Below, one piece after another: positions 7,931 through 15,885 of a stretch of DNA of 15,885 nucleotides. The notes under the pieces were generated by a model, which was given only the letters and a program-made list of their open reading frames with translations, did not search any database and had not been told where the DNA came from. Location: the IMG/VR virus record IMGVR_UViG_2534681991_000026, one strand, 5' to 3'. Each line of letters starts with the position of its first letter. The first letter of the stretch is position 1. A program made the position numbers and the translations under genes. This DNA comes from a virus (lineage: Duplodnaviria > Heunggongvirae > Uroviricota > Caudoviricetes).

Positions 7931-8203
7931 TTAGCTGTCCTGGTAATTGCGCCGTATTTCATCACCAGCACCATCTATACCCATTTCGGCACAAGTGCGA
8001 TTAACTGCATTTCTCAGGTCTCCGAAATTATCAGGCGGCTCCGGTGGCCTCTGTGCCTTCCTGGAACATTCCAGCCGTCGCATCGTGATGTGATGCCGTT
8101 CCTTGTCTGTCTCCACCAGCATCATGACTTCACCCCATCGCGCCGCCGCCCTCCGGTAAAATCCTTTCGCTTCGAGTTCTTCCGCTATGCGGTCATGTAC
8201 CAT
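7931..8203 (-). CDS. PerC-family-like putative transcriptional activator (90 aa)
   Basis: Start at ATG 8203 (MVHDRIAEELEAKGFYRRAAARWGEVMM...) with GAGGGGG SD; the AE-LE--G--RRAA-RW pattern resembles PerC-like activators as I recall them. Sits just upstream of the head operon. Motif-level call only. Confidence 0.45.
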   Translation of the reverse strand: MVHDRIAEELEAKGFYRRAAARWGEVMMLVETDKERHHITMRRLECSRKAQRPPEPPDNFGDLRNAVNRTCAEMGIDGAGDEIRRNYQDS

Positions 8204-11825: not shown

Positions 11826-12047
11826 TTAATCCCCGTCCGTCGTTTTTCTTAAAATAACCTCTGTCACGAAATCAGCATAATCGGCGGCGATATTCAGTAC
11901 GTCTATTCCAGTTGATTTATATTCTTTCGTGCCAATTAAGAAAAAAGATGCTCTAATCAGTTTGGATATTGACGAAAGCGCATCACCCGCATCATCAGAT
12001 ACGCCGGAAAATTCATGTTTCAGGGAATTAAAACGATCATCACGCAT
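11826..12047 (-). CDS. Hypothetical protein (73 aa)
   Basis: Start chosen at ATG 12047 (MRDDRFNSLKHEF...), which gives an 8-nt overlap with the upstream gene's stop; the longer ORF-track form (start 12095) would overlap by 56 nt. Confidence 0.4.
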   Translation of the reverse strand: MRDDRFNSLKHEFSGVSDDAGDALSSISKLIRASFFLIGTKEYKSTGIDVLNIAADYADFVTEVILRKTTDGD

Positions 12048-12264
12048 AACCCCCCCCATTTTCACAATCAGCAATAAGAATATTTTTAGCGTCATTCATC
12101 GACCGCGTGGCGGTGTATCGGATACATTCCAGGGCGAACAATGTGTATTCTTCCCGTTCTTCCTTTTGTGCAAGCACTGCTGTGCATTCAATATCAATAA
12201 GTGCGTGCATCAGCGTAGTGAGCGCGGCGGCTGCTGCGTCCGGTGTGGTTTTATTCTGCAACAT
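12040..12264 (-). CDS. Hypothetical protein (74 aa)
   Basis: ATG 12264 preceded by GGAG about 7 nt upstream; Ala-rich N-terminus. Confidence 0.45.
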   Translation of the reverse strand: MLQNKTTPDAAAAALTTLMHALIDIECTAVLAQKEEREEYTLFALECIRYTATRSMNDAKNILIADCENGGGYA

Positions 12265-12469
12265 ATCTTAACTCCACTGAACTTACGTATTTACACGGGT
12301 TTCCTTTTACCTGTCGCACACGGTAGGAATCGTTTTTAATCACTTCCGCTATTTGCCCAAACTTTTTTACCGCTGTACGGCGGCTCTTGTAGCGGTAAGT
12401 GTTTATCTCCCTTCTGCTCATTACCGCTTCATTGTGATATCTGGTTATCACTATCAGCACTTCAAACAT
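12251..12469 (-). CDS. Hypothetical protein (about 72 aa)
   Basis: Start taken at ATG 12469 (MFEVLIVITRYHNEAVMSRREIN...), overlapping the upstream icd-like stop as ATGTTTGA; alternative starts at 12499 or 12421. Confidence 0.4.
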   Translation of the reverse strand: MFEVLIVITRYHNEAVMSRREINTYRYKSRRTAVKKFGQIAEVIKNDSYRVRQVKGNPCKYVSSVELRYVAE

Positions 12470-12632
12470 GACGCACCCCCTGACGAATACGGGCGACAAA
12501 AATCAGATGTGCGCGCGGCAACTGGGCGCGGGCTTCGCGTTCAGTGGCTGCGGTAACGGTGTAAATATCAATGCTGCTGTGGTGGCACTGCATAAAGCGC
12601 CAGACAAAGTAAGGGCGTGCGGATACAGCCAT
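12462..12632 (-). CDS. Icd-like small protein, paralog 2 (56 aa)
   Basis: MAVSARPYFVWRFMQ...TEREARAQLPRAHLIFVARIRQG; GGGAG SD about 8 nt upstream of ATG 12632; paralogous to 12919-13116. Resembles the small Icd-like proteins annotated in P4-like prophages (from memory). An in-frame upstream extension to 12926 exists with no stop. Confidence 0.45.
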   Translation of the reverse strand: MAVSARPYFVWRFMQCHHSSIDIYTVTAATEREARAQLPRAHLIFVARIRQGVRHV

Positions 12633-12918
12633 GTGAAAGGCTCCCAATTTAATGTTAAGGGGTCTCACCACTACGCTGCTAAACGGGGTGGCGAGACGTA
12701 ACAGGGTTAGCAGACTGGCAAATTGGGAAACCAGCGAGCGCAAAGGCTCCCCCGTTACGCCCCGCCATAATGCGGGTATGGGTAGGTTTACGGACACAAA
12801 AAAACCGCTTATCGGATATGGGCGGCTGTCCGCCAATTTATTCAGGCTGCTAAACCCGGTCGCCATGTGGGCGACGGGGGAAGCATACAGCCCCGTGATA
12901 ATTTTTTGCAAGCGGTTT

Positions 12919-13116
12919 TTACGCATGATGTGACCCCTGACGAATACGAGCGGCAAATACAGCAACACAACCTGACGGGCAACGGCTACGCGCTTCGCGT
13001 TCCGTCCAGGCGGTTACGTGGATGATTTGAGATTCTCCGGCACTCAGGGCCAGAAAACGCCACACAAAGGCCGTTTGTGTGTGTACAAGGTGTGGTATAT
13101 GATTTACGGCAACCAT
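12919..13116 (-). CDS. Icd-like small protein, paralog 1 (65 aa)
   Basis: MVAVNHIPHLVHTQTAFVWRFLALSAGESQIIHVTAWTEREARSRCPSGCVAVFAARIRQG; AGGAG SD 5-6 nt upstream of ATG 13116; first gene of the leftward early operon. Confidence 0.5.
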   Translation of the reverse strand: MVAVNHIPHLVHTQTAFVWRFLALSAGESQIIHVTAWTEREARSRCPSGCVAVFAARIRQGSHHA

Positions 13117-13206
13117 AACGGCTCCTAGTTTACGTTGTTGGTTAGAAGCCCCGTTACTGCTCCTACAGTGCGGGGCTTTGCTCTTTGTATTTCAACAATC
13201 CTTTTG

Positions 13207-13239
13207 GTGTGTTTCATGTTATGGACACATGAAACACAC
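13207..13239. promoter_or_regulatory. Operator-like perfect inverted repeat in the divergent control region
   Basis: GTGTGTTTCATG(13207-13218)-N9-CATGAAACACAC(13228-13239); a third half-site GAAACACAC at 13276-13284 abuts a -10-like TATACT (13270-13275) upstream of the plus-strand gene at 13306. Confidence 0.55.
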
Positions 13240-13305
13240 GTCAAGGCTTTTTGTATTTCTTTTTTTGTGTATACTGAAACACACCGATGATTAGGAGTTT
13301 CAGAA

Positions 13306-13611
13306 ATGGCAACGGCTAACAAAAACGCAAAATCACAACTGACAACCGTCAGAGTCCCACTAGATGTTATGCAAGGGATGGAATCCGTTAAGCTGGACGG
13401 CGAAAGCAATGCCGGATTTATCGTAACCGCCATGCGCGGTGAAATCGCCCGCCGCCAGGCAGAAGGAAGCGGAGAAAATCCCCTTGTGTCTTCACTGGAT
13501 GCTTTGGCTAAGGTCGAACAAATTGGCATCAAGGCAGCGGAGGATATCGGGCAGCTTGTCACCGTTGCACGCGAAGAACTCCAGCGTCGCAAGACCCAAG
13601 AATCAGAATAA
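13306..13611 (+). CDS. Putative small DNA-binding regulator (101 aa), possibly ribbon-helix-helix
   Basis: ATG 13306 with AGGAG SD 9 nt upstream and a -10-like element; only clearly supported plus-strand gene inside the element; TTVRVPLDVMQGMESV suggests a beta-strand then helix as in RHH regulators (weak). Divergent from the leftward operon. Confidence 0.5.
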   Translation: MATANKNAKSQLTTVRVPLDVMQGMESVKLDGESNAGFIVTAMRGEIARRQAEGSGENPLVSSLDALAKVEQIGIKAAEDIGQLVTVAREELQRRKTQESE

Positions 13612-13940
13612 TCACTATCAGCGCCGTGGCGTGAGGTACTACGGCGCATTGCTTTACAGGCGCACACAATGACCAACGAAGAATCAACCGAAAAAACATC
13701 ACCTGCACGAAAAAGACGACGCAGAAAGAAAGAGCATGAATCAGAACGATTCGCGCCGTGTTCTTTTGCCCTTGAGAAGTACCTTAAAGAATACTCATCA
13801 AAGGAGAGAGCTTCGCAGTTATGGCAACGCACTGAACCAGACTGATTGCATTGCACACCAGCCTGATAGCGGCTATCATCCCCGTGCTTATGTTTGGGAT
13901 CACACACACAAACTGCGCAGCGGGTTATCTGTTCAGAAAG

Positions 13941-13968
13941 GCGGCTCCATTTCGGGGCCGCTTTTTTT
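13941..13968 (+). terminator. Strong rho-independent terminator of the rightward transcript
   Basis: GCGGCTCC(13941-13948)/GGGGCCGC(13954-13961) stem (one G-U pair), 5-nt loop, followed by T7 (13962-13968). Confidence 0.7.
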
Positions 13969-14114
13969 ATGCCTGAAAAACTCCAATTTTGTTGTTTTTC
14001 AGTTTCACCAGGGCGAACGAATCCCTGCCCACATTCGGGCGTATATTCAATCTTCATGGTTATAGCTCTGTGTTCAGATGATTGATGTGTGGCGGCTGCG
14101 TGCCGCCAGCGTGA

Positions 14115-14667: not shown

Positions 14668-15885
14668 TTATTTTCTTCTGGCTACGGGTAGCGTGGTTAC
14701 GTTTTCATGTGCTCCCGCCAGTATCCCTAACCGCTCCGTCCACATATCCAGCGCATCACGTTTCGCATCCAGATAACGGGAATGGTTATAGACTCGTTGC
14801 ATCCCTGGCATCTGATGACCTGTAAGCTGCTCCACGACGTGAGGATCCGCGCCTAAATCGTTCAGCATCGTTGTAAAGGTGCGCCGGATGTCATGCAGTG
14901 ACCATTGAGGGTGTTTTAGCCTCCTGTGCGCTAATCTGCCGTACTGCGATACGCTGGCCTCCTGTTTCACTTCCCCCAGCAATAAGCCCGTGTGCCTGTT
15001 CTGCTCCACCAGCTTCATGACAAACGGCAGGATCGCTTCCGGTATGGGCCGGAATATTGCGACCTTCGTTTTGCTGTGCTCCTTCGGAACGGTCCATAGC
15101 ATTTCCGTAAAATCCCACTCCCCGATCTCCGATAACCTCAGTTCTACCGTTCTGGCACCGAAGACAATCAGGAGGCGGATTAACGCGACGTAGTAAGGGG
15201 AAAATATTTTTTTATCCAGTGCCTGCAATAACTCGCCAAGTTCTTTGGTGCTTAAGACACGCTCGCTTATATCCGGTTTTTTCCCAACGTCCGCAACGTT
15301 CAGATCGTCCAGAACGTTGCTGATTGCATAGCGCCGCCTACGGCAGAACTTAAGCGCCTGTTTGCACGCCTGTAGCACGAATCCGGCAGTAACAGGCGTT
15401 CGCTTTGCCACCTGGTCAAAACAAGCCAGCCAGTGCCGTAGCTCGCATTTATCCAGCGGCATAGCACCAATGTGCTGTATTACGTGATTATTAAGTCGCC
15501 TTTTCAGGGCGATATAATCCACGCGGTTTTCCTTTACGTAAGACTCAAGCCAGTAGGTAAGCGCATCGCCAACCGTTACGGGCTTTAACGCTTCCTGTAC
15601 GGTGTAATTCATCTCATGACGTGGATTTTTCCCCTCAGCCAGCCATGCGCGACACTGTGCGGCTTTTTCCCTGGCTGCTTTCAGGCTCAGATCAGGATAA
15701 CTTCCCAGCTTAATGCGTTCGGGTCGTGTCTCCCTTCCCGTTCCGGCCCTGTATGTGAAATACCATGTTAATTTCCCTGATGTTAAATATTTCACGCTCA
15801 GGTTTCCGCCATCACTATAAAACGTGTTTTTCTCAGCTGGCTTACCATGAAGTTTCCTTAGCAATGTATCGCTCAGTTTGTTCAT
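14668..15885 (-). CDS. int: Tyrosine recombinase / integrase, P4 family
   Basis: 405 aa; P4-type N-terminus (MNKLSDTLL...FYSDGGNLSV), catalytic-domain motifs (HDIRRTF, ...RVYNHSRY); start codon at the window edge, so the cognate att site is expected just beyond 15885. Confidence 0.9.
   Translation of the reverse strand: MNKLSDTLLRKLHGKPAEKNTFYSDGGNLSVKYLTSGKLTWYFTYRAGTGRETRPERIKLGSYPDLSLKAAREKAAQCRAWLAEGKNPRHEMNYTVQEALKPVTVGDALTYWLESYVKENRVDYIALKRRLNNHVIQHIGAMPLDKCELRHWLACFDQVAKRTPVTAGFVLQACKQALKFCRRRRYAISNVLDDLNVADVGKKPDISERVLSTKELGELLQALDKKIFSPYYVALIRLLIVFGARTVELRLSEIGEWDFTEMLWTVPKEHSKTKVAIFRPIPEAILPFVMKLVEQNRHTGLLLGEVKQEASVSQYGRLAHRRLKHPQWSLHDIRRTFTTMLNDLGADPHVVEQLTGHQMPGMQRVYNHSRYLDAKRDALDMWTERLGILAGAHENVTTLPVARRK

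Follow-up and report, generated by a model that had tools for sequence, protein, structure and literature searches.

A C4 antisense RNA cassette lies between two Icd-like genes of a cfPICI-type satellite in Escherichia coli

What do two neighbouring genes for similar, very small Icd-like proteins do at the head of an early operon, and what occupies the DNA between them? The question is raised by a 15,885-nucleotide stretch of viral DNA (IMG/VR record IMGVR_UViG_2534681991_000026; below, the window means this whole stretch), in which an earlier note, made from the sequence alone, had pointed to the gene pair at 12462-13116. We found that the 286 nt between the two open reading frames (ORFs), 12633-12918, are filled with RNA elements, namely a leader, a hairpin, a C4 antisense RNA gene and its target sites, and that the locus is a known kind of phage regulatory switch and not a new toxin pair. 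In our judgement the region is probably the immunity and early-control module of a satellite of the capsid-forming phage-inducible chromosomal island (cfPICI) type, built like the immI locus of phage P1 and the immunity region of P4. Coordinates are those of the window, and features lie on the minus strand unless another strand is given.

In order to place the two proteins, we compared them with each other and with family profiles. Icd-like 1 (12919-13116) has 65 amino acids (aa) and Icd-like 2 (12462-12632), which occupies the position of P1 icd and P4 kil, has 56. Against NF033153, the NCBIfam model 'host cell division inhibitor Icd-like protein' with a curated cutoff of 25 bits, they scored 64.7 and 55.2 bits, respectively, and the same model gave 52.6 bits for P1 Icd and 73.1 bits for P4 Eta/Kil. 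The profile search thus confirmed the Icd-like identity that the earlier note had proposed. The two proteins are homologous (BLASTP, 24 of 48 positions identical, E=4e-13), as expected from the shared core described before, although the second motif of that core reads IFVARIRQG, not IFAARIRQG. The ribosome-binding sequence GGAGCC reported for each ORF is present 5' of both ATG codons, at 13125-13120 for gene 1 and at 12644-12639 for gene 2; the Shine-Dalgarno (SD) sequence of gene 1 is GGAG (13125-13122), and no C4 gene precedes it. Both genes are under purifying selection, with a pN/pS of 0.17 over 34 variants for Icd-like 1 and of 0.32 for Icd-like 2, whose central patch is hypervariable. 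They head a minus-strand operon that continues into the primase gene, in agreement with the leftward early operon of the earlier description. Neither protein matched Pfam. When phage genomes were searched by tblastn, the 56-aa protein had no match at E<=0.01 and the 65-aa protein found only P1/P7 Icd at E ~2-10; plain tblastn is too weak for such short proteins, so profile searches were needed. A profile search of solved structures returned chance matches only and no related structure, and one of genome contigs returned four distant Icd-like genes (in Rahnella, Rosenbergiella, Pectobacterium and Tatumella), none of the four with a C4 nearby. By analogy with P1 and P4, both Icd-like proteins would be expected to inhibit cell division.

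We then scanned the whole window with the Rfam models, and a single match exceeded its threshold. This was the C4 antisense RNA, RF01695, at 12684-12772 (74 bits versus a gathering score of 45, model positions 1-87 of 87), the only C4 gene in the window; P1 C4 and P4 CI match the same model. The link that the earlier note had drawn between Icd-like proteins and P4-like elements was sound in that P4 Kil, like P1 Icd, is a member of this family, but the C4 cassette between the genes had been overlooked. The predicted C4 fold has a minimum free energy of -45.2 kcal/mol (z = -5.9), places b' (CCCAAUUU, 12727-12720) in the loop of hairpin 2 and leaves a' (CUGCUAA, 12713-12707) single-stranded 3' of that hairpin. 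A 3' GCCACC motif follows the long stem of C4. The C4-type RNAs of P1 and P4 are matured from a longer precursor by RNase P.

The partners of a' and b' were found on both sides of the C4 gene. On its 5' side, a permissive scan gave a full-length match to the c4-a1b1 leader (RF03163, 12839-12888, 45.5 bits, E=4e-10), with a1 (TTAGCAG, 12853-12847) complementary to a' and b1 (AAATTGG, AAAUUGG in RNA; 12839-12833) complementary to the b' loop. Between leader and C4 lies a terminator-like hairpin, GCCGC...GCGG followed by seven T (12798-12826), which corresponds in alignments to the isrK model terminator and to its counterpart in P1. On the 3' side, an exact-match search located a2 (TTAGCAG, 12682-12676), again complementary to a', and b2 (AAATTGGG, RNA AAAUUGGG; 12650-12643) is complementary to b' and overlaps the SD sequence of Icd-like 2 (GGGAG, 12645-12641). 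Ahead of all these elements, just 3' of the gene 1 stop, is a promoter-like site (TTGCAA, 18 nt, TATGCT; 12911-12882) which is collinear with the P1 promoter P1c4 (former P51b) and nearly invariant in 24 relatives, and which we regard from its sequence as a probable internal promoter.

Is this complementarity maintained in evolution? Relatives were gathered from IMG/VR with each Icd-like protein, and 24 cassettes, 19 of them distinct, were aligned. The inter-gene DNA proved near-invariant except at the a and b sites, at a compensated pair in the first leader hairpin and in the terminator loop. At the variable sites there were 7 b types and 2 a types among the 24 relatives, and each sequence had the same type in C4, in a1/b1 and in a2/b2. 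For a'/b' with a2/b2, 99.3% of the alignment cells were paired and nine of the 15 pairs had changed on both sides, as against 30-52% in slid controls; for a1/b1 with a'/b', 100% were paired and six of the 12 pairs had changed on both sides, as against 17-40%. For neither set did any of 500 shuffles reach the covariation score. Database proteins encoded by this region extend the count to at least 15 b types. These alignments are strong comparative evidence that C4 acts on four target sites, a1, b1, a2 and b2.

The same data indicate that the resident C4 regulates copy 2 and not copy 1. The b' loop was predicted to form a duplex of -12.8 kcal/mol at b2, over the ribosome site of Icd-like 2, where the 1st percentile of the window background was -10.7 kcal/mol. 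At the ribosome site of Icd-like 1 (AAACUAGGAGCC) the value was -5.3 kcal/mol, equal to the background mean (-5.2 kcal/mol), and this site is identical in relatives with differing resident C4 loops; the constant site together with the background-level duplex places Icd-like 1 outside C4 control. Most gene 1 homologues are without any C4. A duplex of -12.9 kcal/mol inside the integrase gene (~15275-15305, minus strand) was treated as chance, since there is no exact b-type site there.

Could copy 1 be a target of another C4 instead? Its presumed 5' untranslated region (UTR) contains a stem-loop, GCCCCG...CGGGGC (13148-13176), whose loop shows UAGGAGC, a near copy of the gene 1 SD context, within a direct repeat (13118-13127 / 13156-13165). 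The ribosome site and the loop of this hairpin (UAGGAGCAG) might thus be orphan targets of b2/a2 type for the C4 of a helper phage or a second satellite, which would control copy 1 in trans. The layout of the Icd-like 1 leader is indeed that of a2/b2 (a hairpin and, ~20 nt further on, an SD within AAAYTRGGAGCC), a second, complete C4 cassette precedes the first Icd gene in some relatives, and one natural C4, in relative L212 with the loop CCUAGUGC, would pair with ACUAGG. Yet the viral collection yielded no C4 of exactly matching loop; among 19 pattern matches there was one real C4, that of L212, matching over 6 nt, and its own target differs (CACUAGG). Moreover, the hairpin loop varies among relatives whereas the ribosome site does not, and no a-type partner was identified, so we regard control by a foreign C4 as unlikely. 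The L212 cassette (IMGVR_UViG_2806310749_000003, 1051-1138) consists of a C4 with this loop and the targets GCACUAG(G), followed by a Kil-like Icd gene, and was the closest natural match that we found to the gene 1 ribosome site. Seven relatives (L008, L009, L014, L015, L020, L021 and L030) have a tandem of two complete C4 cassettes that differ in specificity, in the order C4*-Icd-C4-Icd (~2384-2471 and ~2862-2949), with a truncated Icd-like 1 of the window type further upstream, fused in frame to the first cassette. The tandem Icd pair looks like the product of modular recombination, in which units of cassette plus Icd gene would be exchanged at conserved Icd sequences.

How the two genes are joined was seen at their 3' ends. 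The 3' junction of Icd-like 1 (12924-12957) combines the codons for ARIRQG, an SD-like CAGGGG and an ATG at 12926 which overlaps the stop codon TAA at 12921-12919 (ATGCGTAA). A 34-nt direct repeat, 82% identical, links this junction with that of Icd-like 2 (12467-12500 / 12924-12957), and it encodes ARIRQG together with the SD and the ATG of the overlapping next ORF. Its core is the 15-mer CCCCTGACGAATACG at 12477-12491 and 12934-12948, which the earlier note had recognised correctly but had placed downstream of each start; as the genes are on the minus strand, the repeat falls at the 3' end of each ORF. The junction is conserved in Icd genes as RIRQG codons with CAGGGG or CAGGAGG, then an overlap of the form ATG-N4-stop, and it precedes many unrelated downstream genes. 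ATG 12926 sits exactly at this canonical coupled-start position. After Icd-like 2, the same arrangement leads into a 72-aa ORF (12251-12469; phrog_9805, E=1.5e-22), whose ATG (12469-12467) overlaps the Icd-like 2 stop (ATGTTTGA). This ORF is the first gene coupled downstream of Icd-like 2 and is unannotated in identical genomes by the NCBI Prokaryotic Genome Annotation Pipeline (PGAP); past it come small ORFs, DUF4222 and primase.

From ATG 12926 a frame of 154 codons (12462-12926) stays open from the end of gene 1 through internal promoter, leader and C4 and on into Icd-like 2, just as had been described. It resembles the eta gene of P4. Only 1.9% of composition-matched shuffles are open in this frame, and of 26 distinct relatives 25 keep it open, two distinct +1/-1 indel combinations each restoring it; in the remaining relative, L010, it is lost by a 1-nt deletion with no other visible damage. 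On the question of the earlier note, whether 12633-12926 is conserved as coding, the frame is kept, but its middle is read in two frames, so that the peptide is not conserved. In 118 long database forms, the middle segment is in the frame of the window in 20 and in another in 94. The 98-aa linker matched nothing in Pfam or PHROGs, and its variation is accounted for by the RNA constraints. A protein search gave 330 matches; of the 120 that were listed, nearly all are long forms of 152-155 aa. We further examined nine C4 cassettes (those of the window, P4, P1, L212 and L041 and four upstream C4* copies) and found a frame open across C4 in all nine. It fuses to the Icd gene in the window, in P4 and in the four C4* copies, and stops before the Icd ATG, by 2 nt in P1, 1 nt in L212 and 2 nt in L041 (the last judged by eye). 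Of 61 distinct P4-like loci, 58 have an open eta-like frame.

These results bear on the reading with which the analysis began, namely that the two genes are diverged Icd-like toxin paralogs for different hosts or helpers, that paralog 2 exists mainly as a 154-aa fusion protein and that the spacer is coding or linker DNA. Both are genuine Icd-like proteins kept by purifying selection, the hypervariable patch of Icd-like 2 could reflect diversification of its target, and the long forms are annotated in many genomes. But the spacer consists of an RNA cassette in which C4, a1/b1 and a2/b2 covary strongly, which largely refutes that part of the proposal, and its variation is limited to the RNA pairing sites and hairpins. 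The linker that a fusion protein would contain belongs to no family and is not conserved as a peptide, and nothing was found that ties either copy to a particular host or helper. We therefore consider this reading very improbable as a whole.

The order of the elements was compared with known immunity systems, of which P1 immI is the closest. Promoter, a1/b1, hairpin, C4, a2/b2 and Icd-like gene follow one another in the same order, and ~69% of 215 aligned positions are identical; TATGCT (12887-12882) falls on the -10 element of P1c4 in the alignment, and a1, b1, the hairpin, c4 and a2 follow. The RNA and protein families are the same, b2 lies at the icd ribosome site, and in both the next gene begins at a start codon that overlaps the Icd stop. 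P1 and P7 carry differing C4 specificity variants, much like the relatives of the window. Unlike P1, the window has no coupled antirepressor gene ant, its place being taken by the 72-aa phrog_9805 ORF, and it has an extra Icd-like gene where P1 has a C1-controlled promoter/operator. The C4-spanning frame fuses to icd in the window whereas in P1 it stops short, and the window is a satellite whereas P1 is a plasmid prophage.

In the immunity region of P4 (PLL/PLE, seqA, CI RNA, seqC and kil nested in eta), CI is likewise a C4-family RNA and Kil an Icd-like protein, formed by the C-terminal 65 aa of the eta frame. There too, a long frame, eta, opens where the preceding gene stops, 5' of the internal promoter, and reads through the RNA gene into the codons of an Icd-like protein. 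The P4 cassette is only ~50% identical in sequence to that of the window, the gene before its long frame is the alpA homologue orf88 and not another Icd-like gene, and the pairing regions of the window follow the a/b layout of P1 and not seqB of P4. In P4, transcription from a constitutive promoter within eta is terminated by way of CI/seqA interactions, the transcript is processed to CI, and Kil is made on read-through; full-length Eta is made only from an upstream promoter, coupled to the upstream alpA homologue, and eta translation prevents termination (PMC10111431). The Rfam profiles for C4 and isrK also match several Gram-negative phage-inducible chromosomal islands (PICIs) and helper-embedded PICIs (HE-PICIs) inside eta-like genes, for which an immunity role was proposed (PMC10111431). 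This 'Bro zone' is the same kind of element and module as the window; compared with that paper, which has no such anatomy and no tandem Icd genes, our analysis adds mapped targets, covariation and a first Icd gene outside C4 control.

A third parallel is the isrK-orf45-anrP locus of Gifsy-1 in Salmonella, where orf45 overlaps the processed RNA STnc1160, which its authors compared with P4 CI (PMC4825925). There the nucleotides of orf45 are conserved and the amino acids are not, and orf45 is translated and required for expression of the downstream gene (PMC4825925). The leader of the window resembles IsrK/seqA (hairpins and terminator, 37.6 bits to RF01394, the Hfq-binding RNA isrK), a processed RNA would likewise lie 3' of the leader, and at both loci an ORF overlaps this RNA, the one in Gifsy-1 being coupled to the next gene. 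In Gifsy-1, in contrast, the short leader RNA works in trans as an activator of translation, an antiterminator pathway is the output and no Icd-like gene has been described.

The region upstream of Icd-like 1 offers a candidate for its separate control. A promoter scan of 12200-13400 found one site only, a sigma-70-like TTGACG, 17 nt, TAACAT (13244-13216), predicted to drive Icd-like 1. Around it, between Icd-like 1 and a divergent gene, operator-like repeats GGTGTGTTTCA / TGAAACACAC(C) were found in three copies, two inverted and one direct (13206-13285); the inverted arms 13206-13216 and 13275-13285 are 100% complementary, and the direct copies are 13230-13239 and 13275-13284. The GGTGTGTTTCA repeats overlap the -10 and -35 elements of the promoter. 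In an alignment judged by eye, the motif changes in parallel at both positions in relatives, as would be expected of an operator/repressor specificity module. The divergent gene (13306-13611, plus strand) encodes a 101-aa protein of the YlcI/YnfO family (NF041551, 63.1 bits), for which Pfam gave weak matches only, to the Rv0623-like transcription factor family. Its position beside the repeats makes this protein a candidate repressor of the upstream promoter. Read on the plus strand, the 5' UTR hairpin described above has a T-rich tract behind it and a terminator-like score. A 310-aa ORF on the minus strand (13125-14057), antisense to the YlcI/YnfO gene and its neighbour, matched no family and is almost certainly spurious, and similar long stop-free frames recur 5' of Icd-like genes in relatives; plus-strand ORFs across the region had no family match either.

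Taken together, these features suggest how the module may work. A constitutive internal promoter (~12911-12882) would produce a transcript running through the a1/b1 leader, the terminator-like hairpin, C4, a2/b2 and Icd-like 2 into the downstream genes. Processed C4 would pair through its b' loop and a' single strand with a1/b1 and a2/b2. Pairing at b2 would block translation of Icd-like 2, since b2 overlaps its SD sequence, and polarity or premature termination would keep the downstream replication genes off. The island would in this way be held quiescent and be immune to a second copy of the same specificity. Icd-like 1, which would not be a C4 target, would have its separate promoter (13244-13216) within the operator-like repeats and would be held by the YlcI/YnfO protein. 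After finishing Icd-like 1, ribosomes may reinitiate at ATG 12926 and continue through the leader and C4 as far as Icd-like 2; such translation, like that of P4 eta, would melt the RNA structures, and transcripts initiated upstream would escape immunity. For this regulatory translation across the cassette from upstream transcripts we see about an even chance, and the peptide itself would be beside the point.

In its most elaborate form, the proposal is a two-tier switch that would be new for PICI-type satellites. A promoter under a protein repressor would lead to the C4-insensitive Icd-like 1, and restart at 12926 would block both the leader terminator and C4 maturation and give an Icd-like 2 with an N-terminal extension. 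Transcripts that start at the internal promoter, by contrast, would only make C4 and be silenced by it, and the cassettes, stackable and of at least 15 b types and 2 a types, would give co-resident satellites independent immunities. We put this full scheme forward tentatively, as a possibility that is less likely than not.

What carries our interpretation of the region as an immunity and early-control module is the membership of its proteins and RNA in their families, complementarity and covariation, collinearity with P1, the geometry of coupling, purifying selection and the gene content of the island. A number of observations weigh against it. Most of the Icd-like genes sampled have no C4 nearby, so Icd function is independent of C4, and the C4 stems are nearly invariant among relatives and thus lend little covariation support to the fold itself. 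The leader scored 1.2 bits under the RF03163 gathering score of 46.7, and the isrK-like match that overlaps it stayed below its gathering score of 50, the resemblance being confined to two hairpins and the terminator. The stem of the terminator-like hairpin is weak, and ViennaRNA favours other small hairpins. Both promoters are predictions at the level of consensus, and the internal one, with 8 of 12 consensus matches, is under the threshold of the promoter scan. The genes downstream of Icd-like 2 differ from P1 ant, so that the target of repression here is a presumed one. As for the long frame, PGAP annotates it as a 'frameshifted' Icd-like pseudogene, the peptide is not conserved, long stop-free frames are common on the minus strand, for example antisense to ylcI, and the frame could be open only since the RNA sequence is conserved.

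This last point leads to a serious alternative to regulatory translation, to which we assign a probability only slightly short of even, namely that the 154-codon frame is never translated. It would then be a by-product of selection on the RNA, with ATG 12926 a junction relic from recombination between Icd gene and cassette. Near-invariance of the inter-gene DNA outside the pairing sites leaves few chances for stops to arise, such frames are found on this strand even antisense to real genes, and the drift of the peptide, the pseudogene label and the loss of the frame in L010 without other visible damage all agree with it. The alternative explains less readily why the frame is open when so few shuffles are, and why two indel classes should each restore it. 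Nor does it account easily for the fact that in all nine cassettes, the diverged P1 and P4 included, a frame spans C4 and either stops at the Icd start or continues into the Icd gene, or for an ATG with SD at the canonical coupled-start position, and translation has experimental precedents in P4 and Gifsy-1 (PMC10111431, PMC4825925).

In which element does the module reside? The window is 100% identical to positions 2464569-2480453 of E. coli O103:H2 FWSEC0007 (NZ_CP031908.1), where a 15.9-kb island splits tqsA and is bounded by its two halves. In the PGAP annotation of the identical island there are genes for an integrase, a helix-turn-helix/AlpA-like regulator, the Icd/C4 module, DUF4222, primase, single-stranded DNA-binding protein and PerC, and further for major capsid protein, prohead protease, portal, head closure, head-tail connector, HNH endonuclease and the small and large terminase subunits (TerS, TerL); no tail or lysis genes are annotated. 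A cfPICI is defined by int, a regulator, primase, capsid, protease, portal, head-tail connector/adaptor, HNH, terS and terL, without tail or holin genes (PMC10085698), and all the listed genes were present, in order. By its gene content the host element is thus a cfPICI-type satellite, inserted in tqsA of Shiga toxin-producing E. coli (STEC) O103:H2. The P4-like element assumed in the earlier note did not stand up to the gene content: with psu, delta, sid and epsilon plus alpha, int and alpA taken as the P4-like core set, the island has capsid, portal, protease, TerS and TerL in its stead. The same annotation shows no Psu, Sid or Delta, for which no dedicated profiles were run.

Could such a locus simply be in decay, so that copy 2 would no longer be a working gene and the tandem would be a scar of recombination, without function, in a defective island? 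The pseudogene call of PGAP would fit this, and so would the neighbouring gene at 11826-12264. Here two overlapping ORFs (89 and 74 aa) both match phrog_2512, a 154-aa PHROG family, and since strain 2015C-3163 has a single 144-aa coding sequence in their place, the window carries a frameshifted or split version of that gene. The 56-aa Icd-like 2 is nevertheless intact with its own SD and ATG, the cassette is complete, its pairing sites are perfectly matched in every relative, and the island has the full cfPICI gene set. Furthermore, the 1-kb region was matched in 1179 of 5426 complete E. coli genomes, where the usual annotation is two Icd-like genes. Decay is therefore an extremely improbable explanation.

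On the same island, a gene for a PerC-family transcriptional regulator was found at 7931-8203 (minus strand). PerC/Pch homologues on prophage-like elements can activate the LEE (locus of enterocyte effacement) virulence locus in enteropathogenic E. coli (EPEC) and STEC. A cfPICI-borne copy in O103:H2 STEC may thus bear on virulence.

In summary, the two Icd-like genes frame a regulatory switch whose components and logic were already known from P1, P4 and Gifsy-1, and C4 matches in Gram-negative PICIs had been noted before (PMC10111431). Our analysis adds the mapped anatomy in a cfPICI, the covariation, the many specificities, the position of gene 1 outside C4 control and a reannotation. What PGAP calls a frameshifted Icd-like pseudogene comprises an RNA gene and a short Icd-like gene that is intact, and the many database 'Icd-like proteins' of 152-155 aa extend over this RNA cassette. 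The silencing and switching-on of Gram-negative PICI and cfPICI satellites are only partly understood. A satellite widespread in E. coli, STEC included, carries a complete antisense-RNA immunity cassette of the P1 type, with mapped targets that can be tested by mutation and with many natural specificity variants, which offers both better annotation and an experimental handle on how such satellites are controlled.

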